A DNA stretch of 64,000 bases from Bryobacterales bacterium (GCA_038229055.1 JBBROU010000007.1:2101-66100); one strand, 5' to 3'; counted from the stretch's first letter, positions 4,267-50,300 are shown. Numbers and translations: made by a program. Notes: generated from the letters alone by a model not told the origin.

Positions 4267-6855
4267 ATGATAATCCAGTTCCCGGCGCGGCCGCACGCCC
4301 GTTCCGCCGATTTGAGCCGCCCGATCGCACTCCTTCTCATCCTGACTTTAATAGGTTTGACGGTGCCGCCGTTGCCGGCGCGCAATCGGAAGGGCGATAA
4401 GTTTCTGGCGCAGGGCAAGGCAGCCGAAGCGCGCGAGGACTGGGACAAGGCGCTGCAGTTCGACGAGCAGGCGCTGAGCGAAGATCCATCCGATGCGGGG
4501 TACCAACTGGATATGCGGCGGATGCGGTTTCAGACCGCGGCGTATCACGTGAAGAACGGACAGAAGATCCGTACCAAGGGACAGCTTGCGCAGGCGCTGG
4601 CGGAGTTCGAGCGGGCGTATGCGATAGACCCTTCGTCCGATATCGCCGAGCAGGAGGTTCACCGCACCAAGGTGATGATCGATCGCGAAAAGAGGAAACC
4701 GGCGGCGCGGCCCGAGGGGCAGACCGACCAGGAAGCGGCGGAGGAGAGGGGCATGACGCCCGCGCAGGTAGCGAAAAAGGATGCCGACGCGCGCTTCGAA
4801 TCGCTGCTGCCGCTGCCCGAGTTGCGTCCGTTGACGGCGGCGCCGATCAATCTCAAGATGAACAATCAGAAGCCTCGGGTGTTATTCGAGACCGTGGGCA
4901 AGCTGGCGGGCATCAACGTTCTGTTCGATCCGGAGTACGAAGCGCAGAACCAGACCAAGCCGCAATCGATCGACTTCAACGGCTCGACGCTGGAGCAATC
5001 TCTGGACTATCTGGCGGTGGTGACGAAATCGTACTGGAAGGCGCTGTCGAGCAATACGATTTTCGTGACGCTGGACAATCCGACGAAGCTGCGCGAATAC
5101 CAGGAGCAGGTAGTCAAGACGTTTTATCTGTCGAATGTTACGACGCCGCAGGAATTGCAGGAAATCATCACGACGCTGCGGACGGTGGTCGAGATCACGA
5201 AGATCTTCAACTACACGTCGCAGAACGCGCTGGTGGTGCGGGCGGAAGCGGACCGGATGGCGCTGGCCGAGAAGATTATCGCCGACCTGGATAAACCGCG
5301 TTCGGAGGTGGTGATCGACGTGATGGTGATGGAGGTGAACAGCGTGCACACGCGCAACCTGGCGGCGGCGTTTGCTCCGCAAGGGATTAACTCGAACATC
5401 CTTTTCACGCCTCGGCAGAGTATCCAGACGCTGGCGAGTTCGCTGGGCACGGGGACAACGTCTGGAACCGGGACAGGAACGAATATCGGGAATACCGGAA
5501 TTGGAAGTGGAACTGGAATCGGCACGGGTAACGGCACCGGCACGGGCACCGGCAATACCACAACATCGAGCGCACCGATCCCGCTGGTGAATCTGAGGCA
5601 CATCAGCACGAAGGATTATTCCATCAGCAACGTGCCGGGCGGGCTGCTGGAGGCATTGCTGAATGACCGGGGCACGCGAGTTCTGCAATCTCCATCGCTT
5701 CGCGCAGTGGACAACATGAAGGCCGTACTGAAGATCGGCGATAAGGTACCGACGGCATCGGGCAGCTTTCAGCCGGGAATCGGCGGGGTGGGAATTAATC
5801 CGCTGGTGAATACGCAGTTTACGTTCCTGGACACGGGCGTAAATCTGGAGATCACGCCAAAGGTTCACGACAACGGCGAAGTTTCACTGCACGTTGACAT
5901 CAACATTTCGCAGGTAAAGGACAGGATCGACCTGGGCGGTATCTCGCAACCGATTATCGGCTCGCGCACGGCGACGCTGGACGTTCGCCTGAAGGATGGC
6001 CAGGCCAACTTGTTGGGCGGGCTGATTCAGAATCAGGACACCAAGACCGTGTCGGGCATTCCGGGACTGGCGAACATTCCAATTCTGCGGCGGCTGTTCA
6101 CCAGTGAGCTAGCCGAGAAAGACATGACCGAATTGCTGATCGTGCTGATCCCGCACATAGTGCGCGGGCCCGACTTGAGCGATCTGAACATGAAGGGCAT
6201 CGCGGCGGGCAACCAGACCACGGTGAAGCTGAGTTACGCACCGCGCAAGGCGGCGGCGGCACCGGAGCCGGGAACGACGGCGGAATTGCCGGGCGCGACG
6301 ATGGTTCCGGGCGCTCCGATTTCCGGACCTCCGGCAACAGCGCCGGCCGTAACTCCACCGGCACCCGGCATAACTCCACCGATTGCTGGGCCGCCGGCTA
6401 CGGCGCCCCCACAGGACAAGACGCCAACTACGCCATCGGGCAATGTGCGTGTATCTTTCGCGCCTGCGCAGATCGACACGCAGGTGAATTTCGCATCCAC
6501 GGTGAATGTGCAGGTGGATAATGCAACGGATCTGCAATCGGTGGAAGCGCAGTTGAAGTACGATCCGAAGGTTCTGCGGATCAACAGCATCTCGGCGGGC
6601 GATGTTCTGCAGCGAACGGGGCCGCCACTGGCGCCGTCACTGAATATTCTGAACGATTCGGGCGACGCTTCGTTCAGCATGGCGCGCGCTTCGGATCAAG
6701 GCGGCGTGACCGGGGGCGGCGGGCTGATCACGATTGTATTTCAGGCCATCGGGAAAGGCACGTCAACGATCTCATTCCAGAGCTTGACGCTGAAGAGCTC
6801 AGGAGGGCAAGCGATTGCCACGAGCATGCCGGCGCTCGTCGTCAACGTCAAATAA
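4267..6855 (+). CDS. secretin (GspD/PilQ family) with N-terminal TPR region and C-terminal cohesin-like domain
   Basis: The secretin core runs from VLQSPSLRAVDNMKAVLKIGDKVP to GIPGLANIPILRRLF and ELLIVLIPHIV. TPR-like repeats follow the signal/anchor. A Gly-Thr low-complexity insert lies at roughly nt 5445-5565. A Pro-rich linker leads to a cohesin-like block: VNVQVDNATDLQSVEAQLKYDPKVLRINSISAGDVL. Confidence 0.85.
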   Translation: MIIQFPARPHARSADLSRPIALLLILTLIGLTVPPLPARNRKGDKFLAQGKAAEAREDWDKALQFDEQALSEDPSDAGYQLDMRRMRFQTAAYHVKNGQKIRTKGQLAQALAEFERAYAIDPSSDIAEQEVHRTKVMIDREKRKPAARPEGQTDQEAAEERGMTPAQVAKKDADARFESLLPLPELRPLTAAPINLKMNNQKPRVLFETVGKLAGINVLFDPEYEAQNQTKPQSIDFNGSTLEQSLDYLAVVTKSYWKALSSNTIFVTLDNPTKLREYQEQVVKTFYLSNVTTPQELQEIITTLRTVVEITKIFNYTSQNALVVRAEADRMALAEKIIADLDKPRSEVVIDVMVMEVNSVHTRNLAAAFAPQGINSNILFTPRQSIQTLASSLGTGTTSGTGTGTNIGNTGIGSGTGIGTGNGTGTGTGNTTTSSAPIPLVNLRHISTKDYSISNVPGGLLEALLNDRGTRVLQSPSLRAVDNMKAVLKIGDKVPTASGSFQPGIGGVGINPLVNTQFTFLDTGVNLEITPKVHDNGEVSLHVDINISQVKDRIDLGGISQPIIGSRTATLDVRLKDGQANLLGGLIQNQDTKTVSGIPGLANIPILRRLFTSELAEKDMTELLIVLIPHIVRGPDLSDLNMKGIAAGNQTTVKLSYAPRKAAAAPEPGTTAELPGATMVPGAPISGPPATAPAVTPPAPGITPPIAGPPATAPPQDKTPTTPSGNVRVSFAPAQIDTQVNFASTVNVQVDNATDLQSVEAQLKYDPKVLRINSISAGDVLQRTGPPLAPSLNILNDSGDASFSMARASDQGGVTGGGGLITIVFQAIGKGTSTISFQSLTLKSSGGQAIATSMPALVVNVK

Positions 6856-16192: not shown

Positions 16193-17302
16193 TCAGCCGT
16201 CATACCCGAGGGCTTCGGCTTTCGCGAAATCGGCTTGGGCACCGGCGCGATCGTTTAACTTCTGCTTGGCCCGAGCCCGGTATTGATGGGCATACGAGTC
16301 CTCCGGATCGATTCGGATGGCTTGGTTGAAATCGGCTAACGCTTCGGGAAACATCTTGAGCTCGTGATGCGAGTGACCGCGCCAGAGATGCGCGGTGAGG
16401 ATATCGGGCTGCTTGTCAATAGCCGCGGTGAAATCGAGAATAGCCCCGCGGTGTTGGCCATGGCGATTGGCTATGAATCCGCGTGCGACGTATGCCTCGG
16501 CGAGGTCCTGGTTGATTCGCAGGGCGTGATCGTAGTCTTCCAGCGCGCGGCGCTCATCATCCATTTGGGCGTAACATTCCCCGCGTTGGAAATAGGCGAA
16601 TGCGTCTTCGGGTTCGATTTCAATGGCGCGATTGAAATCCTTCAAGGCGTCCTTCTTCCGGCCGGCGGAGAGCAACAGCAGGGCTCGCTCGATCCACGCC
16701 GGGAAGAAGTTCCGATTACTCTGAATTGCGGCGTCGAAACTCTGGAGAGCCGAATCGAGGTGCCCGAGGTTACCGTGTGCAACGCCAAGGTTGACCAGCG
16801 CGAAGAGATCGCCCGGATTCTTCGCAATGAAACGATTGAGCGGGACAATGGCAGCCGAGGGGCGGGTGTGGGCGGCGTGGTCGCGCATGGCTGAGGCCAG
16901 CTTTTCGTAGCCGTCGGGCTGAAACAGGTCAGTCCATTCGCGATCCGACAAAGTTTTCGGAATTACACACTCTTCGAGTCGGACCGGCACGAGAAGAATC
17001 GAACTTTTGGCTTTCTTTTTCGCCTCCGCCAGAGCCAGCTCGATCTCTTTGGTGACGTAGCCCGCCTTCGAATTGACGCGACGCGAGAGGCAGATGAGGA
17101 CGGCATCCGAACCTTTGATCGCCTCCTCAATGAAGTCTTCCCAACGCTGTCCGTGCGGAATGGCCTCAATGTCCAGCCAGGGCCAGAATCCATCCTCCCG
17201 CAATCGGTCATGCAACTCTTTGATTACCTTTTTGTCCTTCGACCGATGACAAAGAAAAACTTTCAATCCATCCGATTGGTAAGAATCGGCTTGGCGGGTC
17301 AT
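16193..17302 (-). CDS. TIR domain protein with C-terminal TPR repeats
   Basis: TIR block: KVFLCHRSKDKKVIKELHDRLREDGFWPWLD…GQRWEDFIEEAIKGSDAVLICLS…AGYVTKEIELA. The candidate catalytic Glu is at aa ~86. About 6 TPR units follow (…AYFQRGECYAQMDDERRALEDYDHALRINQDLAEAYVARG…). I chose the ATG at 17302 because it forms an ATGA overlap with the upstream stop. The 71 codons further upstream are Arg/Pro-rich and lie inside the upstream gene. Confidence 0.85.
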   Translation of the reverse strand: MTRQADSYQSDGLKVFLCHRSKDKKVIKELHDRLREDGFWPWLDIEAIPHGQRWEDFIEEAIKGSDAVLICLSRRVNSKAGYVTKEIELALAEAKKKAKSSILLVPVRLEECVIPKTLSDREWTDLFQPDGYEKLASAMRDHAAHTRPSAAIVPLNRFIAKNPGDLFALVNLGVAHGNLGHLDSALQSFDAAIQSNRNFFPAWIERALLLLSAGRKKDALKDFNRAIEIEPEDAFAYFQRGECYAQMDDERRALEDYDHALRINQDLAEAYVARGFIANRHGQHRGAILDFTAAIDKQPDILTAHLWRGHSHHELKMFPEALADFNQAIRIDPEDSYAHQYRARAKQKLNDRAGAQADFAKAEALGYDG

Positions 17303-18627
17303 GGGCGGATTAGAGCTTCGAGTTGAACGACGATCCGGAGGAGTTCGCCGCGGCGCGGTTCTTCGAACAGGGCGGCGGCGGTTCGGCAATCGGCGAGCGT
17401 GGTTTCCAGCTTCCAGGCGGATGGACCTTCGACGGCTATTTGGCTGGCAAGTTCCTGGGCTTTCTCGACGTCGCCGGCGTCGAATGCCGAACCGAGGAGG
17501 GTCGGGTTCAGCCATTCGTCGCTCGACTTACGGGTGCGGGCGCGCTCGCAGGCGATCAGGGTGACAGCGCCGGAGACACGAGCCTTGTCATCGTCGCCTT
17601 TCCGGTTGCGCGTGCGATAGAGCCGGGCCAGGTTGGAAGACGGGTAGTAATCATTGAGATCGAGCTTCATGCCGTTCTCATATTCGGCGATGGCGCGGTC
17701 GAGGTCGACGGGATTTTTGGAGGCGCTCCACCTTTTCTTATAGCGGCCGCCAAGAAGGCCGCGGCGTTCGGATGTGTCTCCGGCGCTCGCGATGAGCTCG
17801 CGGAGGGCCCCGATTGCGGTCTCGTGATCGCCCGATTTGGATAAGGCGAGGGCACGCTGCTCTTTGATGAGGGACGAGTTGCGGAGGTCATCGGGCAGAC
17901 TGTCGATGAACTGCAAGGTGGTGGTCCAATCGGTGCAGTCGCGGAGGGTGTAGAGAAGCTCGACGGCGACGGCTTTCTGAATGGGGCCGCCGGTGAAGTA
18001 GCGTTTCTGGAGATCGAGCGCGCGGATGCGGCATTCATCTCCGGTGGCAGCGCGAGCGGCGATGATTTCGGCTTGAAACTGAGAGAGCTCTTCGAGACTT
18101 TTCTTGAACGAAGCGCCGCGAAGAACCTCGAATTCAGGGTACTTGGGGAAGACCTGATAGAACGGAGAATCGCCCTCGCGCATGATGGGGATGGCGGCGA
18201 CCATGATGTTTATGATCTGCGCGGCAACTTCGTCGGAGATGGATTCGGTGGGCAGGGGATAGCGAATCTGGCGCATCTGGTCGACGTCGAAGAGCGGCTT
18301 GGACCAATCGGCGGCGGTCAGAATGCAGCCCCTTTGCTGAGCGGCGTGTCGAATGCCAACTTCGTAGTAGACATTGCCGTTGGGGATGGAAAGGTCGGCG
18401 AGCACCAGGTCCGAGATGGCGAGGCGCTCAATCATTTCAGTGATGATGAGCGCGCCGATATCTTCGTTGGCGCGCACGGGTTCGTAGCCGGCCTTAGCAA
18501 TGGCGGGACGGAGGGCGGCCTCCCAGAGACGATCGAAGTTGACCTTATCGGGCGCCGCACTGCCGGGCGGCGCGGAAGTCGCCTTCGTGCTGTACGGCAT
18601 GATCATGAAGCAGATTGGTTGTGGCAT
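17299..18627 (-). CDS. nucleoside 2-deoxyribosyltransferase-like (TIR-like Rossmannoid) domain fused to DUF4071 / ASK(MAP3K)-type TPR region
   Basis: N-terminus CFMIMPYS…FDRLWEAALRPAIAKAGYEPVRANED…ISDLVLADLSIPNGNVYYEVGIRHA fits the bacterial NDT-like pattern (MPF…D.viaDlt..N.NV.YE.G.aha). C-terminus …RRGLLGGRYKKRW…LDRAIAEYENGMKLDLNDYYPSSNLARLY matches my recollection of Pfam PF13281 (DUF4071 / TRAFs-binding). Confidence 0.7.
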   Translation of the reverse strand: MPQPICFMIMPYSTKATSAPPGSAAPDKVNFDRLWEAALRPAIAKAGYEPVRANEDIGALIITEMIERLAISDLVLADLSIPNGNVYYEVGIRHAAQQRGCILTAADWSKPLFDVDQMRQIRYPLPTESISDEVAAQIINIMVAAIPIMREGDSPFYQVFPKYPEFEVLRGASFKKSLEELSQFQAEIIAARAATGDECRIRALDLQKRYFTGGPIQKAVAVELLYTLRDCTDWTTTLQFIDSLPDDLRNSSLIKEQRALALSKSGDHETAIGALRELIASAGDTSERRGLLGGRYKKRWSASKNPVDLDRAIAEYENGMKLDLNDYYPSSNLARLYRTRNRKGDDDKARVSGAVTLIACERARTRKSSDEWLNPTLLGSAFDAGDVEKAQELASQIAVEGPSAWKLETTLADCRTAAALFEEPRRGELLRIVVQLEALIRP

Positions 18628-20653: not shown

Positions 20654-21573
20654 AATTCCTGGCCGATGCGATGGAGCGCGACGCGATCGGGATGTGCGCC
20701 GGAGGCATGGACGAAGCGCTCGATGGGTTCGTTGAAGGGCTCGCGGCTGAGCTGAAAAGTCTGGTGATGCACGGGCAGGAAGAATTCGGCGCCGGCATCG
20801 TTGCCCATTTTCCAGGCTTGCTCGGGGGTGCAGTGGTAGTGAATCCACGGATCGTAGGCGCCGATCGGCATCAAGGCAAGATCGATGCGGCGCGATGACT
20901 TTAGTGTTTGGAACGCGCTGGTATCGGCCGTGTCGCCGGCGAATAGTACGCGGTAGCGTCCGGCTTCGATGAGGTAGCCGTTGTAGCCGCGGTAGGTATC
21001 GGTGCGCATGCGCGCGCCCCAGTGATTCACTTCGAAGGCGCGGATATTGACCGGGCCCACTGGCACGCTCTGGTTCCAGCCGAGTTCGTGGACCGCACCG
21101 TAGCGAGGAGTCCGCAGCAAATCGCTGGTCTTCACGGCGGTGACAACGGTGGTCCGGCGGTCTTCGAGAGCGCGCAGGCTGGGCAGATCGAAATGATCCA
21201 TGTGGGCATGCGAGAGCAGAATCAGGTCGGGCCGCAGCACACGATTCAGGCACAGAGCGGGCTCGGTGAGGCGCTTGACGCCGAGCGTGAACGGGCCGAC
21301 GTTGAGGCCGGCGCGGTCGCTGAAAATAGGGTCGGTGAGGATGGTGGTGCCGTCAATTTTGAGAAGCACGGTGCTATGGCCGAGCCAAGCTGCGTGCAGG
21401 CCGGTGTCGGGCCACTTGCGGGGATCGGGATGGGCGGGTGCGGGAAGGATGTCGCGTTGCATGTCGCGAGACATCTGCTGCCAAAAAGCGGGCGCGGCGC
21501 GGTAGGCGAAGGCTCCGAGACCAGCGAGTCCGGCACCGGCGGTTGCGCCTCCGACAAGGGTTCGTCTTCTCAC
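20641..21573 (-). CDS. MBL-fold metallo-hydrolase (NAPE-PLD-like), probable Tat signal
   Basis: Metal motif LLSHAHMDHFD. A GTG at 21573 gives MRRRTLVGGATAGAGLAGLGAFAY (twin-Arg signal). The longer ORF to 21699 is Arg/Pro/His-rich and unlikely to be coding. Confidence 0.8.
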   Translation of the reverse strand: MRRRTLVGGATAGAGLAGLGAFAYRAAPAFWQQMSRDMQRDILPAPAHPDPRKWPDTGLHAAWLGHSTVLLKIDGTTILTDPIFSDRAGLNVGPFTLGVKRLTEPALCLNRVLRPDLILLSHAHMDHFDLPSLRALEDRRTTVVTAVKTSDLLRTPRYGAVHELGWNQSVPVGPVNIRAFEVNHWGARMRTDTYRGYNGYLIEAGRYRVLFAGDTADTSAFQTLKSSRRIDLALMPIGAYDPWIHYHCTPEQAWKMGNDAGAEFFLPVHHQTFQLSREPFNEPIERFVHASGAHPDRVALHRIGQEFHSA

Positions 21574-21620: not shown

Positions 21621-22574
21621 TTACGCCACCGTGCGGAATCCGGCGATGCGGCGGGCGAAGGCCGCGATGCTGAGGGTGGGTTCGACGCCCATTCGGCAAA
21701 GCGAGAAGAGATTGGCGTGTTCGGAGTTCAGGCCGTATTCGGTGGTGACGGCGGTTTCGAATCCGGCGCGCCGCACGGCTTCGATAACGTCGGCGGAGTA
21801 GTCGTCGGCGGTGCCGTTGGGATAGCAGAAATTGGTGACGGGCTCATCAAGCGCATCTTCAAGGCGGTGCTTGGAGGCGGCGATTTCGGAATCGAGGCCG
21901 GAGACATCGACGCGCGACAGGATGGGGTGCGTGCAGGTGTGGGCGCCGACGTCGAGGCCATCGCGCGAGAGCGCGCGAAGCTCATCCCAGGTCAAAGGCA
22001 GTGCATCGTGCGGGGGTGCGGCGGTGAGTTCGATGTGAAGCAGGCGCGGCAGATCCCGAAGCGTTTGGAGGCGCTCGGAATTGGGCATCTGAATTAAGCG
22101 CTGATTCACGGCATCGCGCGATTGGAGGCGCGTGCGCGTCGTAGAGAGGTCGTAATGAGTTCCCGCGATTTCGACGGTGTTGAGCGGCGTCTCGGTGAAG
22201 AGGAAGTTGGTTTCATCGGGCCAGAGCCAGAGGTCGCGGTCGATGAAACCGGTGACGGCGAAGAGGGTGACGGGCAGGCCGAACTCGCTGAAGATGGGGA
22301 AGGCGCGGGCGAAGTCGCGATAGCCGTCATCGACGGTGACAGCGAGGGCATTGTCGGGGAGCGGCTTCCCTTCCCTGCGGGCGCGGGCGGCATGGGCCAG
22401 CGAGACGGGGTGGTAGTGGCGGGCGATGTGGGCGCACTGCTGGTGGAAATTGTCGAGCGCCACGGGGAAACGGTGATACATGAGTATGCGAAGGGCGCGG
22501 GCATGGCGATGGCGGACCCAGCGCACGCCGCCAAGGTGAAAGAAGGCGGCTTCAAGGGCGGATTTGGCGCTCAT
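21621..22574 (-). CDS. polysaccharide deacetylase (CE4) family protein
   Basis: ALAVTVDDGYRDF (the NodB TFDDG-type motif) and GAHTCTHP (the His-His motif). Confidence 0.85.
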   Translation of the reverse strand: MSAKSALEAAFFHLGGVRWVRHRHARALRILMYHRFPVALDNFHQQCAHIARHYHPVSLAHAARARREGKPLPDNALAVTVDDGYRDFARAFPIFSEFGLPVTLFAVTGFIDRDLWLWPDETNFLFTETPLNTVEIAGTHYDLSTTRTRLQSRDAVNQRLIQMPNSERLQTLRDLPRLLHIELTAAPPHDALPLTWDELRALSRDGLDVGAHTCTHPILSRVDVSGLDSEIAASKHRLEDALDEPVTNFCYPNGTADDYSADVIEAVRRAGFETAVTTEYGLNSEHANLFSLCRMGVEPTLSIAAFARRIAGFRTVA

Positions 22575-23593
22575 CGCGGAGTGGCCGAGCCGAAGGAGAA
22601 ATCTTCGCTGGCGACGCGGCCGCGGGAATCGACGATGGCGGTCGCGGTGAAGCTGCCATCGCCAGGATATCCGAAGCGGAGATCCGTGAGTTCGACACGC
22701 CAGAATCCATCGCCCTGACTGGAGGGCAGGATTCGCCAGAACGGGTAGAGGCTGAAGCGCAAGAACTGCTGGAAGGTGCTGGTGCGGCGGGCAATCGCGA
22801 GCGCGGGATGATCTTCGGGCTTATAGAAGATGCGGCCGGAGGCGGGGTCGAACGGCGCGAGAACGTTGAGGTCGAAGAGGGAGACGGAATCGCGCGTTTC
22901 GGCGAGGCCATGCCAGCGCAGGGGGTTCGAAGGATTCGGGAAGGCGGCCACGCGGACCGGCGCCGAACCATTGTAGATTCGGGAATCGAGAACGGCCGTG
23001 GCGCGGTCGTGAAGCACTTTGTGCGCGAAGTTGATGAACGCGACGAAGAGCAGCGCGGCGATGGCGAAACCGCGGCCCGGAAGCTTGGTTGAGCGCGCGC
23101 CGATCTCCGAGCTGACCAGGCGACCGAGCCATGGGGCGACGAGGCAGAGGAGGAGGACGGCCCAGATCCAGACGTCGACGAGGGCGGTGAGGTCGAGATG
23201 GAACCATTCGCCTGAGAAGGGCAGGAGCAGGCGGATGCCGTACACGTTCGTGAGATCGAGCAGGAGGTGCGAGACGACGCCAGCCAGCGCGACGAGCCAA
23301 GCCGTAAGCCAGACTTTGCCGCGGCCGGCTTTGGGCGCGCGCGGATTGAGGACACGCTCGATGATGCGAACGAGGGCGACGGCGAAGAGCGCGAGCACAG
23401 GCGCGGCGACAAGCGAATGGGTGATGTGCCGATGCCAATGGATATAGTTGAGCGACCCGCCGAGGGCTGCGGCGATGTCGACGTCGGGCGCGTTCGCGGC
23501 GAGGACGAGCAACAGCGTGGCTCTGGGAGTGATGCGATTGAAACCGGCGCGGCTGAGGAAGACGCCGGTGAGAGCGTGAGTGATGTTATCCAA
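22571..23593 (-). CDS. membrane-bound metal-dependent hydrolase (YdjM/DUF457 family) with C-terminal extension
   Basis: N-terminus MDNITHALTGVFLSRAG…HWHRHITHSL is typical of DUF457. Several TM helices. 4-nt overlap with the downstream deacetylase gene. Confidence 0.7.
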   Translation of the reverse strand: MDNITHALTGVFLSRAGFNRITPRATLLLVLAANAPDVDIAAALGGSLNYIHWHRHITHSLVAAPVLALFAVALVRIIERVLNPRAPKAGRGKVWLTAWLVALAGVVSHLLLDLTNVYGIRLLLPFSGEWFHLDLTALVDVWIWAVLLLCLVAPWLGRLVSSEIGARSTKLPGRGFAIAALLFVAFINFAHKVLHDRATAVLDSRIYNGSAPVRVAAFPNPSNPLRWHGLAETRDSVSLFDLNVLAPFDPASGRIFYKPEDHPALAIARRTSTFQQFLRFSLYPFWRILPSSQGDGFWRVELTDLRFGYPGDGSFTATAIVDSRGRVASEDFSFGSATPR

Positions 23594-23644: not shown

Positions 23645-24580
23645 TCAGGTAAGGGATTCGGGGGCGCCTCGGACGTATTGGCGAAAGAAATCGGCGTCGG
23701 TGATTTGGCGTCGCGATTCGACGATTTGGCGGAAGGGTCGGAACTTGGCTTCGGCGAGCCAGATTTCAACCTGGCGCGGGAGGGGTTGCAGGAGTTGTTC
23801 GAAGATTTCCGCGGCGCGGGGTTGGAAGACGGTGCGAACGGTGACGAGCTGGTTGAACTCGATATCGTCCCACCGGACGGGGTAGGGGAAGGTTTTGCGT
23901 GAAAAGTGCCCGACGTGCGCGCCGGTAACGCATTTGACGCCGACGCCGAGAATGCGGGCACGGGCGCAGAGGTCCTGCTCCAATTTGCCCCAGGTGCGGA
24001 AGAAGGGCGAGAAGCCGCCGATTTGTTCATAGGTTTCGCGCAGCATCATATAGCAGGCGCCGATTACCATGGGGACGTCTACGACGGCTTTGCAGGGGTA
24101 TTCGGTGAGGTGGCGGAACGAGAATCCTGGCGAGAGCCCAGCGTGGTAGTCCCGTTTGCCGCACCAGACGAACTCGGCTCCCCAACAGAGAGGCTTGGTC
24201 ATTTCCCAGTTCCACCAGGCGGCGCAGAGGAGGGCGCCGGACTCGACATGAGCCATCATCCGGTCGAGCCAATCGGGCGCGAAGCTCATGTGGGGGTCGA
24301 GGAAGACGAGCACGTCGCCGGTGGCGAGGTCGGCTCCGGTGCGACGGGAACGGGCGCAGCCAATGGGCTCGCTGTTGCGGAGGGTGGTGACTTCGGGGTG
24401 TTCGAAGCTCTGCGGGATCAGGCTGGCGTCGTCGACAACGATGATTTCCCTGGGGTAGCCGGCGGTGGTTTGGAGGAGGCCCTCGATGGTGGCGTTGAAG
24501 AGATATTGCGGTTCATCGCGGACGGCGACGATGAAGGAGAGGGGACGAAAGCTACCTTGCCGACAGGACAAAGACGCCAT
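23645..24580 (-). CDS. glycosyltransferase family 2
   Basis: GT-A signature LSFIVAVRDEPQYL…EIIVVDDASL and the DxH-type motif VLVFLDPHM. Confidence 0.8.
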   Translation of the reverse strand: MASLSCRQGSFRPLSFIVAVRDEPQYLFNATIEGLLQTTAGYPREIIVVDDASLIPQSFEHPEVTTLRNSEPIGCARSRRTGADLATGDVLVFLDPHMSFAPDWLDRMMAHVESGALLCAAWWNWEMTKPLCWGAEFVWCGKRDYHAGLSPGFSFRHLTEYPCKAVVDVPMVIGACYMMLRETYEQIGGFSPFFRTWGKLEQDLCARARILGVGVKCVTGAHVGHFSRKTFPYPVRWDDIEFNQLVTVRTVFQPRAAEIFEQLLQPLPRQVEIWLAEAKFRPFRQIVESRRQITDADFFRQYVRGAPESLT

Positions 24581-25478
24581 TCTTGTATGACAGCTTGCCG
24601 CCGTGCTCGATCCACCATGAAAGCCACCGCTGTCCGGCTTCTTTGAACGTGCAGATCACCGCGGCATCCCCCCGGGTGTAGAATTCGAAATCGATCAATT
24701 TGAGGTAAGTCGTCAGCATTTCGGCGAGTGAACCGGTGCGTTGAACGCCCCCGCGGTCGTAGTCGCCCGTTACCAGGAACTCCTTCACTCCGGGCGAGAG
24801 AAGGATGTGACCTTGCGACAGCTTCTCCATGGTCTCGAGCTCCTGTCTGAGCGTCTGGAATCGGAATTCGACAGGCTGTTGGAGGGAGGGCACATCCGGA
24901 ACCGCTTCGCAGACGGCGGGCTCGGGGAGATGCAGCAAGTCTAGAACTCTGACTGCATTCGAGACCGCTTTCGCATCAGCAGAAACGGCCAAATGGGACA
25001 GATCGCGAATGGGCTCTACACGGCCGATCGCGGAAATTACCTGGGCCGCGTTAACGTACTCGTCCTCGAGACCCTTGAGTTCGCCAGTTGCTTCTAAAAC
25101 GAGTTTCGGTATGCGGCCAAGCTCCGAATCGTCGCCCAGGAGATGCAAGCCGCGAATGATCCGCATGTCGACAACACGTTCGAGCGCGACCGGATCGAAA
25201 TTGAGGCTTACGGTTTCGGGGCCGGGCCGGGGTCTTTCGAGAAGTTGGTGCAAAGCGCTGGTGGATTCCGCTCCAGGGACGCGTGCGATCGCGTCGATTG
25301 CAGCGAGTCGCGACCGGAAGTCCCGTTTTGTATCCGATACAGTCTGGACCGCCAGCACCAATTCATTGTTCATCGGTTTCACCTTTTTCCGTTGAGCTGT
25401 AGCGGGCGCGCACGCGCATAACAACGTCAGCGCCGCCACTCCGAACCAATTTTGCCGCAGTTTCGTGATCTCGGACAT
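24552..25478 (-). CDS. putative lipoprotein, helical-repeat (HEAT-like); immunity-protein candidate
   Basis: Signal peptide with lipobox-like sequence VAALTLLCACAP. A helical region follows (…RLAAIDAIARVPGAESTSALHQLLE…). The start lies 3 nt after the stop of the upstream 742-aa gene. Confidence 0.5.
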   Translation of the reverse strand: MSEITKLRQNWFGVAALTLLCACAPATAQRKKVKPMNNELVLAVQTVSDTKRDFRSRLAAIDAIARVPGAESTSALHQLLERPRPGPETVSLNFDPVALERVVDMRIIRGLHLLGDDSELGRIPKLVLEATGELKGLEDEYVNAAQVISAIGRVEPIRDLSHLAVSADAKAVSNAVRVLDLLHLPEPAVCEAVPDVPSLQQPVEFRFQTLRQELETMEKLSQGHILLSPGVKEFLVTGDYDRGGVQRTGSLAEMLTTYLKLIDFEFYTRGDAAVICTFKEAGQRWLSWWIEHGGKLSYKNGVFVLSAR

Positions 25479-25481
25479 TTG

Positions 25482-27710
25482 TCATGGTCCAGCAAACGTG
25501 GCGTCGTGAGTTACGGTGAGTGTGCTTCCCGACAGGACCTCCAACACATGAGTGTTCCACGTCTGGCTCGAGAGTGTGATGGGATCGGGGTTCATGTTGC
25601 CGCTTACAACTCCAAAGACCGGTCCCGTGCCCTCCTTTTTGTAGACATTCACGGCCGCAGGAACGTCGAAATTCAGGTGCACACGCGTTTCAAAATCGAT
25701 GGAACTGTAATAGTGGGTGAAGGGTGCGACGACATGACCCTGACTGGGGGCATCATCGGATGTGGCTGTTTTCAGATCGGCAGAGATGGTGTAGGCATCG
25801 TCGTGATAACGCGGGTCGGTATGCAGCCTGTCGATGGTGAAGTCGGGAAAGTTGGAGATGTGCTGAATGTCGTAAAGCGTATGGGGCGCTGGGAAGACGG
25901 GGGTGGACCCCGGACCCTGCCATCGCTTGAAGTAGCCCTGCATCCATTGCACGAAGGTGTACATCTTTGTAGTGCCAGCCTCGCGCACGGTGAACTTCAT
26001 GTTGATGGACTTCTTGATTCCTCCATCAATATAACCGTTGTCGACGACCGTGAAACTGATCAGGTTGTTTTTGACTTCGAGGCTGGGCGAGGCGGCAGGA
26101 TCGGTAGTCCCGGCCGGTGGCGACGCGGGATCCGGAAAGGCGATGACCCGGTATTTCATGGCGATCGCTGAAGAGAAGGAGGCTAACGGAATTCTTGCCA
26201 AGTCCCGCCACCATTCCAAGGGCATAGCGAAGGTGGCCCCTCCACTGCCGTCCAATTTCAGGGAGGTTTTTCCATCGGTCCAAGAGCTGTAAACCTTTAG
26301 ATTCTGGCGGTCACGCGCGTTCTTGGTCGCGTCCCACGCTCCGGAGATTCCGGGGCCTCCGGCGGGCGTGGAGCCGTCGCGGGTCACCTGCAGATCAAAG
26401 AACTGATTCGGGGGGCCGTCTGTGATGGTGAAGGTAAGGATGGGAAATCCGGAAGGAGTATTGCCCGCCTTATCGACGACTACTGTGATGCTGCCGCTGT
26501 TGGGCACCACCTTCATCTTGCGCAGCTTCAGATTGACCGGATCGGTTTTATCGGTCGGGTTGACGGTGGCGTGGCCGTCGTTCCCATCGGCTAAACCTTC
26601 CTTGAAGGCGCTGACGTGATAGGTTACGCCCTCTTTCAGGTTGACGATTTTGTAGTTTCCGCTGCCATCGGTGGTGACTGCCGCGACACCGGCTTCGGCG
26701 ACCTTTACCGTGGCCCCGGGGATGGGATTGGTGGTGGCGGCGTCGGTCACGGTACCCGCGATGAAGAGTGGGCGCATTTTGAGCGTGGCCGGGACAACGT
26801 CGTTAGGACGGAATTTGGGATCCAGGCCGGCATCGGCGTGTACGAAGCCCTGGTCGATGGTGGATTTCAGATCGTGGTGACCGGACTCGACGAACTTGAA
26901 CTCGAACTCGCCATTACCGCCGCTTTTCACAGAGCCGGATGCCTGTCCATCCAAGGTGACGGTAGCGCCGGAGACGCCGTTTTTGGAGTCATCAGGGTTG
27001 GTGGAATCGACCGCGCGGCCGCGGATGATGCCCCGCGGTTTGACGGTGATTGGGACGTCGGTGACTTGGTTACTGATTACTTTGATCGGGCCGGCGTTGC
27101 CAGGAAGGTTTCCGTCGGCGCTTTCTACTCGAATTGTATAGTCGTCCGCGGGCGGCAGGTTGTCGAAGACGAGCTGACCGTCATCACCAGCTTTGGAGGT
27201 TTGCCCCTGGGAACCGCCTAGGGTGACGGCGGCTTGAGCGAGCGGCGGGGTATCGGTTCCGTACTCGTACGTGACGATCACGTGGATTTTGCCCGGGACA
27301 GGCGTCGTGCCACCGGGCGGAGACGTAGGAGCGGGGCCGCCACCCGGCGTCTCGGTGCTCGCGCCGCAGTGCGAGGCGGGTTCGCCGACATTGCCCTGGC
27401 CCGCATTGGCATCGGCATCCGCGGCGGCCCCGGTTAGGGCAGCGGGAGTGGTATCCGGAGTTGGAGTAGGTGTCGGAGTTGGGGTTGGCGTCGGCGATGG
27501 GGTAGGAGTAGGCGTAGGAGTTGGTGCTGGAGTCGGGGTTGGAGTTGGAGTAGGAGTAGGAGTAGGAGTTGGAGTAGGAGTAGGAGTAGGAGTAGGAGTA
27601 GGGGTTGGAGTAGGAGTAGGGGTTGGAGTAGGAGTAGGGGTTGGAGTAGGAGTAGGAGTAGGAGTCGGCGTGGGTGTTGGAGTCGGCGTGGGTGTGGGAG
27701 TTGGAGGCAT
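25482..27710 (-). CDS. signal-less 742-aa protein: N-terminal (Pro-Thr)n tract, three CarboxypepD_reg-like beta-sandwich domains, unassigned C-terminal ~300 aa
   Basis: Starts MPP(TP)n for ~85 aa. Repeated blocks of the type GATVTLDG…[17 protein letters not shown] and [10 protein letters not shown]…[23 protein letters not shown] are carboxypeptidase-regulatory-like. I could not assign the C-terminal region (…[17 protein letters not shown]…[13 protein letters not shown]…). Confidence 0.65.
27456..27707 (-). repeat. in-frame hexanucleotide tandem repeat (plus strand GGNGTN; encodes Pro-Thr)
   Basis: Directly visible. It is near-perfect (GGAGTAGGAGTAGGGGTT…) from ~27551 to ~27665 and degenerate at both flanks. 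It encodes about 40 PT dipeptides at the N-terminus of the 742-aa protein. Confidence 0.95.
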
Positions 27711-27713
27711 GGA

Positions 27714-28718
27714 TTACGACGCCTTCAGGCGCTGGGTGGCCGCTGCATAAAGACCCCTGATTTTAGAGGCTGGTTCGTTGTTGCGGGCGAGAATCTCGGC
27801 TGCCCAGGCATGGCGAGGTTCGGTGTCGAAATCTCTGCCGAAAACAATCATGAGATCGATGAACTTGCAAACATCGCGCTTGGAGGTGATTTTGTGCGCG
27901 GCGGCGCGCGCGATGCCATATTGGATCAGTTCCCGGAGCTGGGGTTCGCCCAACGCGGCGCACTGTTGCGGGAAAAACTTCGTGGCGTGGGTACACATCC
28001 AGTCCTCGAACTTCCGGACCTCCGCCTGTGAGAACGCGGCCATCTGCGCCGCGCGTATGCTGAGAAGGCCGCGGAGGGGCGGTGCGCCGGTGATCTCTTC
28101 GTTGGGGAACGCCAGATCCCCAGCGGGCTCGCGAGTTGGGGTATCCAGTGAAAGAGTTCGCTGCGCCAGTTTGCCTCGGTGGCGGCTGAAATCCAGCATG
28201 TTTCCGGGCGTTTTGCTTTCCGTCCAGAAACGCTCGATGGGGCCGAAGACGTGGCGCAGATCTTCCTCATTGCAGGTGGGCAGATAAACGCGCAGAATAC
28301 GTGGATCGTAGTAGCGGAAAACAAGACGCTGGCCGGCGGGATCGCGAACGATGAGGAAGGTGCGCAGGTGCCGCCGCAGCTTTTCGAGCGACGTATCGGA
28401 GCGGAGGAAGACACCCCAATTGTTGCCCCAAGCCTGCTGGATGAGCCGGCGGGTATCCGGATAATCGTAATCGAGCTGGACGAGGTAGGGAGCGGCGATT
28501 TCGAGCGCCGGGGGCAAGGTTCCGCTGTACAAGCAGGAATAGTTGAGGTGGCATTCGAGCAGCAACCGGAAAACCTGCCGGTCGCGCGCGGCATCGACGA
28601 TCATCCAGATGTCGCGCCGTTCGCCGCGCGGCCAGAGACACTGTTCTATTTGACGGAGCCACTGGCTGGTCATGAGTGATTTTGCGCGGCGACCGCCGCG
28701 TGTTTTTTCTTCTCTCAT
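27714..28718 (-). CDS. DUF4123 domain protein (T6SS effector adaptor/chaperone family) with C-terminal helical extension
   Basis: IWMIVDAARDRQVFRLL…LYSGTLPPALEIAAPYLVQL…GVFLRSDTSLEKLRRHLRTFLIVRDPAGQRLVFRYYDPRILRVYLP matches the DUF4123 core (…PyLv…fRfYDPRvl…). ATGA overlap with the upstream gene. Confidence 0.8.
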   Translation of the reverse strand: MREEKTRGGRRAKSLMTSQWLRQIEQCLWPRGERRDIWMIVDAARDRQVFRLLLECHLNYSCLYSGTLPPALEIAAPYLVQLDYDYPDTRRLIQQAWGNNWGVFLRSDTSLEKLRRHLRTFLIVRDPAGQRLVFRYYDPRILRVYLPTCNEEDLRHVFGPIERFWTESKTPGNMLDFSRHRGKLAQRTLSLDTPTREPAGDLAFPNEEITGAPPLRGLLSIRAAQMAAFSQAEVRKFEDWMCTHATKFFPQQCAALGEPQLRELIQYGIARAAAHKITSKRDVCKFIDLMIVFGRDFDTEPRHAWAAEILARNNEPASKIRGLYAAATQRLKAS

Positions 28719-29251
28719 TCGGGACAGAAAGGCTTGCCCTCCGCGGCGGCGGCCGTCAGGGTGGCTGCCTGCGCGTCGGCATCGGTGTCCGGGCCGAAGG
28801 TTGGGGTATCCTGGGCGGGCAGCGAAGAAGATGAGGACGGCGGTCGCGGCTGCCGCTCGGCTAAGGGAAAGGGAATTTCCCGGGCCGGGCTGGAGGCCGA
28901 AGAACTGGCCTTGCCGCCGGAGCCGAACACGAGGTACGCGGGCGTGGCGTGAACGTGGAACGATCCGGAGCCGAGTAACTGGGCGAGACGATCGATCACC
29001 TCGGAATCCGACAATTTGGTTACATCGGATGAGCCGGCTTCATCGGACAAGAAGCGGCGGATCGCGGTGAGCGCAGCGGCGTCCCCGGTGAATTGGGCGA
29101 GCCATTGCCGGGCACGGGCGTAGTCCTGCAAACGCCTGGTGAGTTCGCAATGGGGACACCCGTTCGCCCGATAGATTTCCGGTTGGTTGGGCCCGAAGCG
29201 GAGCATTCGTCTCTGGAAGTATACGGCAGTTGAGGAGCAGAAACGCGGCAC
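28715..29251 (-). CDS. hypothetical protein (first gene of the DUF4123 operon)
   Basis: CPHC pair near the N-terminus. Helical block AALTAIRRFLSDE…LSDSEVIDRLAQLLGSGSFHV. Ser/Pro-rich linker. Ends …AAAAEGKPFCPE. The start is uncertain; Met16 (MLRFGP) is also possible. Confidence 0.45.
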   Translation of the reverse strand: MPRFCSSTAVYFQRRMLRFGPNQPEIYRANGCPHCELTRRLQDYARARQWLAQFTGDAAALTAIRRFLSDEAGSSDVTKLSDSEVIDRLAQLLGSGSFHVHATPAYLVFGSGGKASSSASSPAREIPFPLAERQPRPPSSSSSLPAQDTPTFGPDTDADAQAATLTAAAAEGKPFCPE

Positions 29252-47358: not shown

Positions 47359-50300
47359 GTGGCCGACGAACAACCAAAATCGTTTGTGTTTCACGATCCT
47401 ACGGGGAAGCGCTGGCTGCGTTTCCGCCGCGGTGCGCAGACCTTCGGTGTTTTGGCGCTGGTGCTGACGTCCCTTTTCGTACTGAGCATCCTGTTCGTGA
47501 TTCCGCAGTTGCCGGGTTTGGGCCTGCCGCCGGTCACGCCCGGTGGCAACGTTGCCGAAGTAGCGAACATCATTCGCGGGGAAAAGGCCGAGCGCAACGT
47601 GCCGTTCAAGATGCGGCGCGACGCGACCAAAATTAAGTATGTCCGTTCCAACTCACCGGTGATCCATCCCAAAACAGCCGCCCGGGCCGCGGACGGCCAC
47701 CCCCTCGTGTTCGGCTTTTACGTCAATTGGGATCGCGCCAGCATCGTGTCCTTGCGCCTGAATCTGGCGCATCTAACTCATCTTGTTCCCGAGTGGCTGA
47801 TCCTGCAAAACGGCAAAGGCGATCTGGACGATCAGAGCGACCCGACGGTCATCGCGATTGCCCGTCAGGCGAACTTGCCCATTCTGGCCGAGTTGAATAA
47901 CTTCCGCGAGTCATGGCGCCCGGAGGATGTTCGCCAATCGATTCGCGACGCTGAGCATCGCACGGACCTGGTCAACAACATCTACAACAATCTGGAGGAG
48001 CATAAGTTCGCCGGCGTAAATATCGACTTTGAAGGATTGGGAACGCGCGATAAGCAGGTCCTGATCATTTTCATGACGGAGTTGTACGCCAAGCTGCATC
48101 CGGCGGGACTTATGGTTACTCAGAGCGTTCCTATCGATGACGAAGCCTACGATCTGAAGGCGCTCTCCGCGGTGAACGACTACCTGGTGCCGATGGTCTA
48201 TGACGAGCATTACCAATCGGGAACACCCGGCCCGGTAGCTAGCGAACAGTGGTTTGAAGATGAGCTAGACAAGCTCGCCAAAATCGTCCCGGCCGAAAAG
48301 ACGGTGATCGGGTTCGGTAACTACGGTTATGACTGGATCATTGGAGCATCCGGCGGCGCGGAGGTCTCGTTCAGCGACGTGATGGCCGCCGTGGTCGCGA
48401 ATCACTCGCACATCGATTGGGACGCCGACACCGCCAACCCGGTACTGCGCTTCGGATCGGGATCGACGCAGCATGAGATCTGGTTCCTTGACGCGGTGAC
48501 CGCGCTCAATGAAATTCAGTCCGTTTCAGACAACGGTTATCGCGGCGTTGCGGTTTGGCGTCTGGGCGCGGAAGACCCCAACCTGTGGAGCGTTCTGAAG
48601 CCGGAGAAGTGGCCCGAGCAGGGTTACGATCCGACGCAGCTTTCACATTTAACCGCGGAGAAAGCGGTAAACCAGTATGGCGGAGGAGAAATCATCCACA
48701 TTGCGGAGACTCCGCATGACGGCTCGCGAAAGGTCATCGCGCCCAAGCATCCGGACGACGATTACACCGAGGAATACGCGCAGTACCCGACTTATTACGT
48801 GTTGGACACGAGCGGAAAGTCCGATGACAAAGTGATCTGTCTGACTTTCGACGATGGCCCGGATTCTAATTACACGCGCCAGATTCTGAACATTCTTGAG
48901 ACCAAGAAGGTGCCCGCTACTTTCTTCGTTGTGGGCGTAAACGCCGAGCAGAATATAGACCTGATCAAGCGCGAATTCGCCGATGGCGATGAAATCGGTA
49001 ACCACACGTATTCACATCCGAATATCGCGGCGGTTTCGGCGCGCCGCACCGAACTCGAACTTACTTCCACGCAGCGCATCGTCGAAAACGCCGTCGGGCG
49101 ATCGATGACTTTCTTTCGCCCTCCCTACAACGCCGACAGCGAGCCGCAAACTCCGGAGGAGATCCTGCCGATTAAGCGCGCGCAGGACCTGGGTTACATC
49201 ACCATCGGTGAGAGTATCGACCCGCGCGACTGGCAGCCCGGAATTACCGGCGAAAGCATTCTGAAGGAGGTGCAGAGCGAAAATGCGAACGGCCACATTA
49301 TCCTTCTGCACGATGGGGGCGGCGACCGCAGCCCGACCGTCGCCGCGCTCCCGGAGATTATCGACTACTTCCATAAGCGGGGATATCGTTTCGAGAACGT
49401 CGGAGCGCTGATCGGTAAGACGCGCGCCCAGACCATGCCTGTCCCTTCGGCCGAAGAGATGCGGTGGGCGCGGTTCGAGGGAGAGGCGTTCGATCTGAAA
49501 AGCAATTTCAAGCGCGTTCTCGGAATACTCTTCCTTACGGCGATTTATCTGACGCTGCTTCGCTCCGTGGTCTATGGCATACTCGCCATCATCCAAAAAA
49601 ACCGCACGGGCAAGCAGAAATTCGATACTTCGTATCGGCCTTCCGTCTCGGTGATCATCGCCGCGTATAACGAAGAGACCGTCATTGTGCGCACGGTGCA
49701 GTCGATCCTGAAAAACGGTTACCACCCGCTCGAAGTCATCGTGGTCGACGATGGTTCGAAGGACAACACCTACCGGGTGTTGTGCGACAACTTCGCCGAT
49801 AACCCGACGGTGCGCGTGCTGACGCAGCCGAACGGCGGCAAATCCGCCGCGCTCAACAATGCGATCGCGCACTCGCAATACAGCATCCTGATTGCCGTGG
49901 ATGCCGACACTCTCTTCCAGAGCGGCACGATTGAGAAACTCGCGCGCCACTTTGCCGATCCGGAGGTCGGGGCCGTTTCCGGCAATGCCCGCGTCGGAAA
50001 TAGAAAGAAATGGATTACGCGTTTTCAATCGATCGAATACATATACGGATTCAACCTGGACCGGCGCGCTCTGGATCTGCTGAACGCAATCACGGTCGTC
50101 CCCGGCGCGGTTGGCGCGTGGCGCAAGGATCTGGTGGAGGAACTCGGTGGCTTCGGTCATGACACGCTGGCCGAGGACGCGGATCTCACGTTAGACGTGC
50201 GCCGCGAGGGCTATAAAGTACGTTACGAGCAAGATGCCATCGCTTATACCGAAGCTCCCGAGACGACGAGCGGGCTTGCCAAACAGCGTTTCCGTTGGTC

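Follow-up and report, generated by a model that had tools for sequence, protein, structure and literature searches.

A 64-kb window of DNA from a Bryobacterales bacterium (Acidobacteriota), whose coordinates are used throughout, carries on its minus strand five co-oriented and tightly coupled genes, all with intact open reading frames (ORFs), that are arranged around an adaptor of the DUF4123 family. Very probably, this locus is an auxiliary ('orphan') effector-loading module for type VI secretion (T6SS), in an uncultured acidobacterial genome. The toxin family of the cargo also occurs on DUF4280 in VgrG islands of Bacteroidota, adaptors of the same subfamily stand behind VgrG, and in two other loci this toxin domain is followed by a homolog of gene 4, which argues for a T6SS auxiliary module rather than a new export route. 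Upstream of the adaptor lies a small protein, the product of gene 1, that ends in a motif also found at the C-terminus of VgrG. The components of the module are listed below; related loci and proteins from our searches are numbered with the prefixes L and P, respectively.

28715 to 29206, minus strand: gene 1, 163 aa from the ATG at 29206; the ORF can be extended to a GTG at 29251 (178 aa)
28931 to 29206, minus strand: N-domain of gene 1, aa 1-92, with C17-x2-C20, R50, SDxEV, G81 and FHVH
28802 to 28930, minus strand: S/P-rich linker of gene 1, preceding the C-terminal tail
28718 to 28801, minus strand: C-terminal tail of gene 1, aa 136-163 (PTFGPDTDADAQAATLTAAAAEGKPFCPE); a motif shared with the C-terminus of the L025 VgrG
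27714 to 28718, minus strand: gene 2, DUF4123 (Tap/Tec-type) adaptor, 334 aa; Pfam DUF4123 at E=3e-31
28119 to 28673, minus strand: adaptor N-lobe, aa 16-200, predicted to bind the tail by analogy with Tap6 and Tap14
27717 to 28043, minus strand: adaptor C-lobe, aa 226-334, predicted to bind the cargo
25482 to 27710, minus strand: gene 3, predicted effector (cargo), 742 aa, without signal peptide; from the ORF, Pfam and homologs
27457 to 27706, minus strand: Pro-Thr repeat, (PT)n, cargo aa ~2-85, mucin-like; period 6, 41.7 copies by Tandem Repeats Finder
27366 to 27440, minus strand: cargo motif DADANAGxGNVGDPxxxC, 25 aa, aa 91-115, a candidate adaptor-recognition peptide
26421 to 27263, minus strand: three CarboxypepD_reg (prealbumin/transthyretin-like) beta-sandwiches, cargo aa ~150-430; PF13620 at E=1.2e-22
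25485 to 26420, minus strand: predicted toxin domain, cargo aa 431-742 (312 aa); 42 homologs, three with DUF4280
24552 to 25478, minus strand: gene 4, putative cognate immunity lipoprotein, 308 aa; homologs downstream of the toxin domain in L065 and L067
23645 to 24580, minus strand: fifth gene, GT27-like glycosyltransferase (GT2 below), 311 aa, a possible fifth component; Pfam Glycos_transf_2 and Glyco_transf_7C

An earlier description of this DNA, made from the sequence alone (the first-pass annotation), had reported four packed minus-strand genes, and our ORF listing returns them at the same coordinates (28715-29251, 27714-28718, 25482-27710 and 24552-25478). The ATGA overlap of genes 1 and 2 is seen at 28715-28718, and the 3-nt spacers that had been described lie between genes 2 and 3 (TAA-TCC-ATG, 27708-27716) and between genes 3 and 4 (TGA-CAA-ATG, 25476-25484). 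The operon extends further than was thought, however, as GT2 (23645-24580) had been missed: its first 29 nt lie within the end of gene 4, it is kept at the same operon position in seven related loci, and no terminator-like site was found on the minus strand from gene 1 down to position 21000. In the window, the adaptor and cargo ORFs share a reading frame, with TAA and one codon between them. Adaptor-cargo spacing varies among other loci, from an 8-nt overlap to spacers of 2, 4, 6, 8 or 9 nt, so this shared frame is a coincidence and a read-through fusion of adaptor and cargo was dismissed.

Adaptor, gene 1 and the link to the T6SS

The conserved N-lobe of Tap, a DUF4123 protein, binds a short helix-turn-helix that ends the disordered linker of the VgrG C-terminus, and the isolated VgrG tail suffices for this binding, whereas the effector is bound by the variable, helical C-lobe (Colautti et al. 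2024, PMC11582642). The two lobes can also exist as individual proteins, as for TecT and co-TecT, of which TecT binds to a C-terminal extension on a PAAR protein (PMC11582642). Gene 2 belongs to DUF4123, as had been claimed: PF13503 matches with E=3e-31 and 108.5 bits against a cutoff of 25.8, over profile positions 2-118 of 119, and the NCBIfam model of the Tla1 chaperone matches with E=8.5e-12, below the model cutoff. A scan with an alignment of adaptors, taking one genome per GTDB species, yielded 55 related loci, nearly all from metagenome-assembled genomes of Acidobacteriota (Bryobacterales, Terriglobia, Ca. Sulfotelmatobacter and Acidobacteriaceae). Both the conserved N-lobe and the variable C-lobe of Tap/Tec-type adaptors are present in the gene-2 family. 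The N-lobe (aa 16-200) occurs in all 55 loci with 47-71% identity; the C-lobe (aa 226-334) occurs in about one-third and is variable or absent in 31 of the 46 loci that could be parsed. As a separate ORF of ~100 aa just upstream of the cargo, the C-lobe is found in L003, L041, L054 and L067. A protein at L060 (10004-14252) begins with a DUF4123 N-lobe and continues to 714 aa without a Pfam match in its remainder; it is followed by a gene for a Ser/Thr kinase with TPR repeats.

Between loci, gene 1, the adaptor and GT2 stay 57-72% identical, while the cargo and the gene after it are swapped for unrelated proteins. Such exchange beside constant partners is the behaviour of a polymorphic toxin/immunity cassette. 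In L003/L035 (10360-14863) and L043 (10010-13906), the cassette of C-lobe, cargo and immunity gene lies on the strand opposite to the gene-1/N-lobe pair; a similar arrangement occurs in L037, L038, L012, L028 and L039, with the break at the inter-lobe junction of the adaptor. GT2 is within the inverted segment of L035, where it moved together with the cargo cassette, and outside that of L043, which implies at least two independent rearrangements sharing one breakpoint. L012 holds two C-lobe copies that are merely 71% identical. An invertible DNA switch or shufflon was considered and rejected, because no flanking inverted repeats were found in L003, L037 and L043. We read the opposite-strand cassettes as fixed rearrangements that would give split adaptors of the TecT/co-TecT type.

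The adaptor is connected to the T6SS through four loci (L025, L058, L059 and L062), where VgrG stands immediately upstream of the orthologous adaptor. These adaptors are of the same subfamily as gene 2, with 49-52% identity over the N-lobe. The upstream ORFs of L025, L058 and L062 carry Phage_base_V, Gp5_trimer_C and, if the N-terminal part is in the ORF, Phage_GPD; vgrG of L058 is split into two ORFs, and the upstream ORF of L059 is 53% identical to the L025 VgrG (blastp). L025 is a complete main cluster, composed of TssA, TssE, TssF, TssG, ClpV, VgrG, DUF4123, TssK, TssK and TssM, and a more distant gene-1 homolog resides inside another T6SS main cluster (L069). The two TssK (VasE) paralogs of L025 (11496-15681), of 453 and 450 aa, have one opposite-strand gene between them. 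In the window, no vgrG with a docking-motif C-terminus stands directly upstream of the adaptor, and gene 1 bears this motif instead.

Judged from its sequence, gene 1 couples an undescribed domain of ~90 aa to a free-standing copy of the C-terminal tail with which VgrG docks the adaptor. Its CPHC pair and its ending (...AAAAEGKPFCPE) had been recorded correctly; the length of 178 aa needs revision. Close homologs are all 157-163 aa long and start at the equivalent of ATG 29206, so the product probably has 163 aa. The statement that gene 1 is not a VgrG or PAAR protein is literally correct. VgrG domains (gp27-like Phage_GPD, gp5-like Phage_base_V / Gp5_trimer_C) have no Pfam match in gene 1 at E<=1, a PAAR or DUF4280 domain has none in Pfam or NCBIfam, and the AlphaFold2 (AF2) model is mainly helical; Pertussis-S4 and thermosome matches in Pfam/NCBIfam were far below cutoff and were dismissed. 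Nevertheless, the last ~30 residues are the VgrG-ending motif, and only the spike body is absent. The C-terminus of the L025 VgrG (…PTFSAGNDASAQAATLTAAAADGKPFCPE) matches the gene-1 tail (…PTFGPDTDADAQAATLTAAAAEGKPFCPE) nearly residue for residue. By blastp, gene 1 shares 66% identity with the VgrG tail of L025 and 43% with that of L059, and the VgrGs of L058 and L059 both end in tails related to that of gene 1.

Close homologs of gene 1 are few, and every one examined lies directly upstream of a DUF4123 gene. The first-pass annotation had raised the possibility that gene-1 homologs with a PFC.E-type C-terminus recur in this position, and they do: an ORF with the C-terminal pattern P(T/S)F…AQAAxLxxAAxxGxPFC(PE or EEC…) is immediately 5' of the adaptor in at least 40 of the 55 loci. 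Recurring in at least 40 of 55 species-level genomes, the pairing of gene 1 with DUF4123 is far beyond chance, and in most loci gene 1 takes the operon position of VgrG. By analogy with Tap, the adaptor N-lobe would bind the C-terminal helix of gene 1, whose motif is that of the VgrG ends. The proteins encoded upstream of the adaptor in L015 (2816-3649) and L054 (2593-3660) suggest that the docking motif has yet another type of carrier, besides VgrG and gene 1: both match DUF6861 weakly, over the Pfam cutoff in L015 only, and both end in a VgrG-type tail.

The AF2 model of gene 1 comprises a confident N-domain block (predicted local distance difference test, pLDDT, of 81-95), a linker of low confidence (pLDDT 54-64) and a helix at aa 143-156. 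The N-domain belongs to no Pfam family, and its model has no fold match in the PDB. A profile of the domain retrieved 324 clusters at E<=1e-3 from 1.84 billion representative proteins, and the clusters that we looked up all consist of metagenome proteins. Twelve proteins were obtained with an alignment of 61 gene-1 sequences when the 8000 candidates with the most shared words were scored. Most members are 150-180 aa long and tail-ended, in either the PFCPE or the longer PFCEECxxAAxx form. In a minority of larger proteins, the N-domain occupies the N-terminus and is followed by diverse C-terminal regions. These include putative toxins (P0031, P0075, P0114, P0163 and P0186), among them HExxH metallopeptidase-like regions (P0075, P0163 and P0186) and, in P0114, a CarboxypepD_reg domain together with an unassigned region. 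P0076 and P0139 combine the N-domain with a PG_binding_1 domain, and in P0031 and P0015 it is joined via a Pro-rich linker to a homolog of the toxin domain of the window's own cargo. Two N-domain-toxin fusions that we looked up form orphan pairs with a downstream gene of ~330 aa in housekeeping surroundings. Three unusual architectures were also seen in the family: two tandem N-domain copies followed by a single tail (P0049, 264 aa); an extra N-terminal region of ~170 aa ahead of N-domain and tail (P0188, 319 aa); and a tail-less subgroup of ~200-240 aa (P0053, P0058, P0059, P0070, P0079 and about 10 others) that shares a conserved C-terminus of ~50 aa, …LPDGSxxxGxLDxxGxARxxxIxPGQCEVRFPELDxxEWxP.

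From the presence of the N-domain on otherwise unrelated toxins, we infer that it is a delivery tag that docks on the secretion machine. The N-domain of gene 1 would then dock the adaptor-effector complex onto a VgrG or PAAR protein encoded elsewhere, such that a generic spike could carry the cargo without having a tail of its own, and gene 1 would substitute in trans for a tailed VgrG; we put the chances of this role at about even. The direct fusions to toxins support a self-sufficient function as delivery tag in the docking step.

Several observations weigh against this picture. Among 20 large ORFs of the window, which by Pfam encode a secretin, a TonB-dependent receptor, a GH18/deacetylase/GT2 fusion and housekeeping enzymes, no T6SS core gene was recognized, and tblastn with related acidobacterial TssA/E/F/G/K/M, ClpV and VgrG found none in the 64 kb, with no dedicated queries for TssB, TssC, Hcp or PAAR; the earlier remark that no T6SS gene is nearby is thus upheld by both searches. 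In gene 1, the tail helix has high pLDDT (81-90), and C17, H84 and the tail residue C161 are nearly invariant throughout the family. The tail may fold back onto the N-domain, possibly via a metal site, instead of being free.

The missing T6SS genes, together with the lack of VgrG within 10 kb in most related loci, would suit a scenario in which DUF4123 and the cargo serve a non-T6SS export route, or none, and re-use of DUF4123 by another route had indeed been proposed in the first-pass annotation. That proposal is not supported, and we regard such a route as very improbable: adaptors of the same subfamily follow directly after VgrG in acidobacterial T6SS loci and occur inside main clusters, the toxin is fused to the PAAR-like DUF4280 domain in VgrG islands, and gene 1 itself bears the VgrG tail motif.

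Gene 1 might be a decoy or holding factor rather than a bridge to the spike. As a mimic of the VgrG tail, it would occupy the spike-binding lobe of the adaptor and stabilize or sequester the adaptor-effector complex until displaced by a tailed VgrG. Gene 1 and VgrG do share the tail motif, the confident tail helix may point to packing in cis, and for some relatives VgrG-tail and gene-1-type modules are both present in one lineage. However, fusions that link the N-domain directly to toxins, without any adaptor, fit a delivery tag better, and the place of VgrG in the operon is taken by gene 1 in most loci; overall, we judge a decoy function to be improbable. The nearly invariant C17, H84 and C161 and the confident tail helix fit cleanly neither the docking nor the decoy role.

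The tail motif, identical to that of VgrG tails, and the split vgrG of L058 also invite the thought that the module is the decaying remnant of a vgrG island, with gene 1 a non-functional leftover of a truncated vgrG. Against this stand an N-domain that is unrelated to VgrG and conserved in 324 clusters with invariant residues, the intact and translationally coupled ORFs, and a GC content at third codon positions of 0.65-0.78 in the module genes, similar to that of neighbouring genes, all of which make decay extremely improbable.

Cargo, toxin domain and immunity gene

The 742-aa product of gene 3 shows the features that had been ascribed to it: it has no signal peptide, a PT repeat encoded by a 6-nt array of 41.7 copies (27457-27706) and three CarboxypepD_reg stretches (E=1.2e-22). 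Beta-sandwiches of the prealbumin/transthyretin type are known from T6SS spike and effector contacts. Although the PT-rich N-terminus is present, it is not the peculiarity for which it was taken ('atypical'), being a hallmark common to cargos of this adaptor subtype. Pro/Thr(/Ser)-rich N-termini of 20-170 aa also begin the cargos that come straight after full-length adaptors of this subtype, namely those of L011, L013, L014, L016, L018, L020 and L021 and, on the inverted strand, of L043, and the cargos of L022 and L023 have acidic/Ser-rich runs in their place. All of these cargos, PT-rich and acidic/Ser-rich alike, contain (L)xAAxxDADANAGxGNVGDPxxxC, at aa 91-115 in the window. An equivalent PT/PS-rich N-terminus is also seen in the cargo of L015.

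The motif DADANAGxGNVGDPxxxC is present in 10 other cargos directly downstream of this type of C-lobe (in L043 on the opposite strand). It also occurs in two second cargos, of L013 and L021, and is otherwise found only beside this C-lobe type. Owing to this restricted occurrence, the motif is the best candidate for the peptide that the adaptor C-lobe recognizes; following the published Tap model, the C-lobe would grip it between flexible PT/P-rich linkers. After the motif there is usually a CarboxypepD_reg domain (one in the cargos of L011, L022 and L023) and then a variable C-terminal domain. Cargo homologs associated with a divergent stand-alone C-lobe (L067 type) begin with another N-terminal domain, MSRRAKRPLNxxAVxAADxEIY…, and this difference fits lobe-specific recognition. 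In a 99% identical strain (L068, Logan SRR19962015), the contig stops where the PT repeat begins, 87 nt past the adaptor gene, apparently at a break in the short-read assembly.

The C-terminal region of ~300 aa, which could not be assigned at first, remains without a match in Pfam or NCBIfam over residues ~431-742. It is part of a previously unannotated, predicted toxin family, as had been suspected; it is not unique to this locus, since 42 homologs with 37-71% identity were found. Three of them (P0028, P0041 and P0045) carry an N-terminal DUF4280 domain, two as confirmed by hmmscan. DUF4280 is described in PMC5014421 as a PAAR-like T6SS domain. One of the three, from Apibacter raozihei (P0045, locus L065), lies within an island of the order VgrG - DUF2931 x2 - Tle1-like - …, so that homologs of the toxin domain occur on T6SS carriers both by fusion and by neighbourhood. 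The AF2 model of aa 431-742 is confident (pLDDT 94.8, predicted template modelling score 0.89) and almost wholly beta. Foldseek gave Ig-like domains only in the PDB (best E=9e-4, TM 0.17), none of them informative, and no match in BFVD, and no PDB entry matched by sequence profile. Invariant residues comprise PLEWWRDxxR, TVREAxTTxMYTFVQW and one further 10-residue block, along with N, Q and several D residues.

For gene 4, the designation as lipoprotein-like holds, given a plausible LCAC lipobox; the helical repeat that had also been proposed is reflected in a weak HEAT_2 match only (E=0.12), and no Pfam or NCBIfam match is significant. The gene after the Apibacter toxin in L065 encodes a protein with 32% identity to gene 4 (E=9.5e-40) and a canonical lipobox, LASC, and the gene after the acidobacterial toxin homolog of L067 encodes one with 41% identity (E=5e-42). 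By contrast, proteins at the gene-4 position beside other toxin types are unrelated to gene 4. This pattern indicates that the toxin and gene 4 form a cognate pair that moves together across phyla, and gene 4 is the predicted lipoprotein immunity factor of the cargo toxin, which would protect the producer and its kin. Because the immunity protein is a lipoprotein, the toxin at the C-terminus of the signal-less effector would act in the periplasm of the target cell. With DUF4123 matched at E=3e-31, a T6SS-linked toxin family and gene-4 homologs that follow the toxin in different phyla, the order of adaptor, effector and immunity gene proposed in the first-pass annotation is retained. Toxin and gene 4 together represent a new predicted toxin/immunity family that is common to Acidobacteriota and Bacteroidota and has no structural relative in the PDB or BFVD.

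Glycosyltransferase and neighbouring genes

Sequence matches of GT2 in the PDB are nearly all polypeptide GalNAc-transferases (ppGalNAc-Ts), the best with E=2.6e-12 over aa 15-234. Against GalNAc-T2 (6e7i_A), the pairs LDPH/LDSH, WGKLEQDL/WGGENLEI and VGHFSRK/VGHVFRK are formed; the DxH motif, the Gal/GalNAc-T motif and GHxFRK with the third Mn-binding His all align, in keeping with a GT-A enzyme. The 311-aa protein contains Glycos_transf_2 and Glyco_transf_7C only, with neither a C-terminal ricin-type lectin domain nor a type II membrane anchor. As read from its sequence, GT2 has no signal peptide or membrane segment, and therefore would meet a T6SS substrate in the cytoplasm.

In L010, L011, L015, L016, L018 and L035, the flanks of which otherwise differ, the immunity gene is followed by an ortholog of GT2 (60-72% identity), and an ortholog is adjacent in L043. 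Eight more loci have paralogs (27-32% identity) at a distance of up to 10 kb, and one of these paralogs is ppGalNAc-T-like with E=4.7e-24. A GT27-like gene is found within 10 kb of all nine motif-bearing PT-rich cargos and of neither of the two acidic/Ser-rich ones (Fisher's exact p ~0.02, for loci that are phylogenetically non-independent). This co-occurrence raises the speculative notion that the GT27-like enzyme O-glycosylates the Thr-rich (PT)n repeats of the effector in the cytoplasm before T6SS export, which we consider unlikely; further substrates might be the linkers, rich in S, T and P, that are present in gene 1 and in VgrG tails. If true, this would be mucin-type glycosylation of a T6SS substrate, which could for example stiffen or protect the long tether from the adaptor-binding motif to the rest of the complex. 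In L013 (4349-11037), 3' of gene 1, adaptor and PT-rich cargo, GT2 is accompanied by a 767-aa double glycosyltransferase (the ppGalNAc-T-like protein with E=4.7e-24) and by a LanM-type lanthipeptide synthetase (DUF4135 and LANC_like, 983 aa); the region is possibly a glycosylated-peptide cluster beside the T6SS module.

On the 3' side of GT2 in the window, a YdjM-family membrane hydrolase and a polysaccharide deacetylase are encoded at 21621-23593 (minus strand) with a mutual 4-nt overlap, and both genes may be co-transcribed with the module. Along with GT2, the PT repeat and the three CarboxypepD_reg domains, these genes could be taken to mean that the operon product is no toxin but a cell-surface or S-layer-type protein that is glycosylated by the enzyme encoded next to it; a weak NCBIfam match to an anammox S-layer glycoprotein, far below cutoff, points the same way. 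Yet the cargo has no signal peptide, its C-terminal domain and the next gene are swapped for unrelated ones between orthologous loci, the toxin domain recurs on PAAR-like proteins beside VgrG, and the context is that of DUF4123. A surface protein thus has a very slim chance of being the product, and we retain the assignment as a T6SS effector-loading module.

Three other proteins of the window deserve mention. At 4267-6855 (plus strand), an 862-aa secretin (Secretin and Secretin_N, with N-terminal TPR) carries a C-terminal cohesin domain (E=1.4e-10), an unusual combination. At 47359-50709 (plus strand), GH18 and polysaccharide deacetylase are combined in one 1116-aa protein with a GT2 domain resembling chitin or poly-N-acetylglucosamine synthases. 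At 17299-18627 (minus strand), a 442-aa protein with TPR-S and MAP3K_TRAF_bd-like domains is a possible sensor of the conflict/defence type.

Comparison with known systems

To our knowledge, T6SS effector loading has been worked out nearly entirely in Proteobacteria, with a DUF4123 adaptor on the tail of a dedicated VgrG. The locus described here and its more than 40 acidobacterial relatives suggest that effector loading is more modular. If the N-domain of gene 1 docks on a generic spike, the gain of a new adaptor-effector cartridge would require no duplication of vgrG, and uncultured soil bacteria could be searched for T6SS effectors with the domain as a new sequence marker. In addition, the cargos supply a candidate linear peptide for recognition by the adaptor C-lobe, and the operon raises a testable link of Pro-Thr repeats to an enzyme resembling polypeptide GalNAc-transferases. 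The module departs from described T6SS auxiliary modules in its detached tail on a new domain family, its new predicted toxin/immunity family, the conserved cargo N-terminus in which a PT repeat is followed by a linear motif, and the recurring GT27-like glycosyltransferase.

MIX, FIX, RIX and prePAAR are N-terminal markers of T6SS delivery. Like these, the gene-1 N-domain is short, conserved and N-terminal, is found on unrelated toxins and also exists as a stand-alone gene; unlike them, it matches no Pfam family, and in its commonest form it is fused to a VgrG-type tail, not to a toxin. Compared with the eukaryotic polypeptide GalNAc-transferases (GT27), GT2 aligns over the whole catalytic domain, and an acceptor-like repeat rich in Thr and Pro lies two genes upstream, but GT2 lacks the lectin domain, membrane anchor and signal peptide and is presumably cytoplasmic. 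The DUF4280-toxin of Apibacter raozihei (P0045) has the same toxin domain (38-40% identity, ~340-370 aa) and the same downstream family of lipoprotein immunity proteins; in that case, however, the toxin would be delivered as part of the spike tip, to which it is fused, and not via an adaptor, and PT repeat, beta-sandwich array and glycosyltransferase are absent there.

The closest parallels to the whole module are vgrG6-tap6-ptx2-pti2 and vgrG14-tap14-rhsP2 of Pseudomonas aeruginosa (PMC11582642), with which it shares a bilobed DUF4123 adaptor just upstream of the effector and then the immunity gene, a (here predicted) adaptor partner that ends in a short helical tail tethered by a disordered linker, and a C-lobe that co-varies with effector type. 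In contrast to these modules, the tail resides on a 163-aa protein with a novel N-domain instead of on VgrG, and no spike gene is nearby. The survey in PMC11582642 was limited to nine proteobacterial genera; the loci found here are acidobacterial, and the effector family is outside the five considered there (Rhs, Tle, alpha/beta-hydrolase, MIX and MATE). A second parallel is the PAAR4/co-TecT/TecT/TseT/TsiT system of P. aeruginosa (PMC11582642). Separate lobe ORFs as in TecT/co-TecT are likewise found in L003, L041, L054 and L067, whereas the lobes are fused in the window, and in contrast to PAAR4 the carrier here is not PAAR, as it matches neither PAAR nor DUF4280. In that system, the N-lobe binds an extension on a protein other than VgrG, which sets a precedent for a different carrier of the tail.

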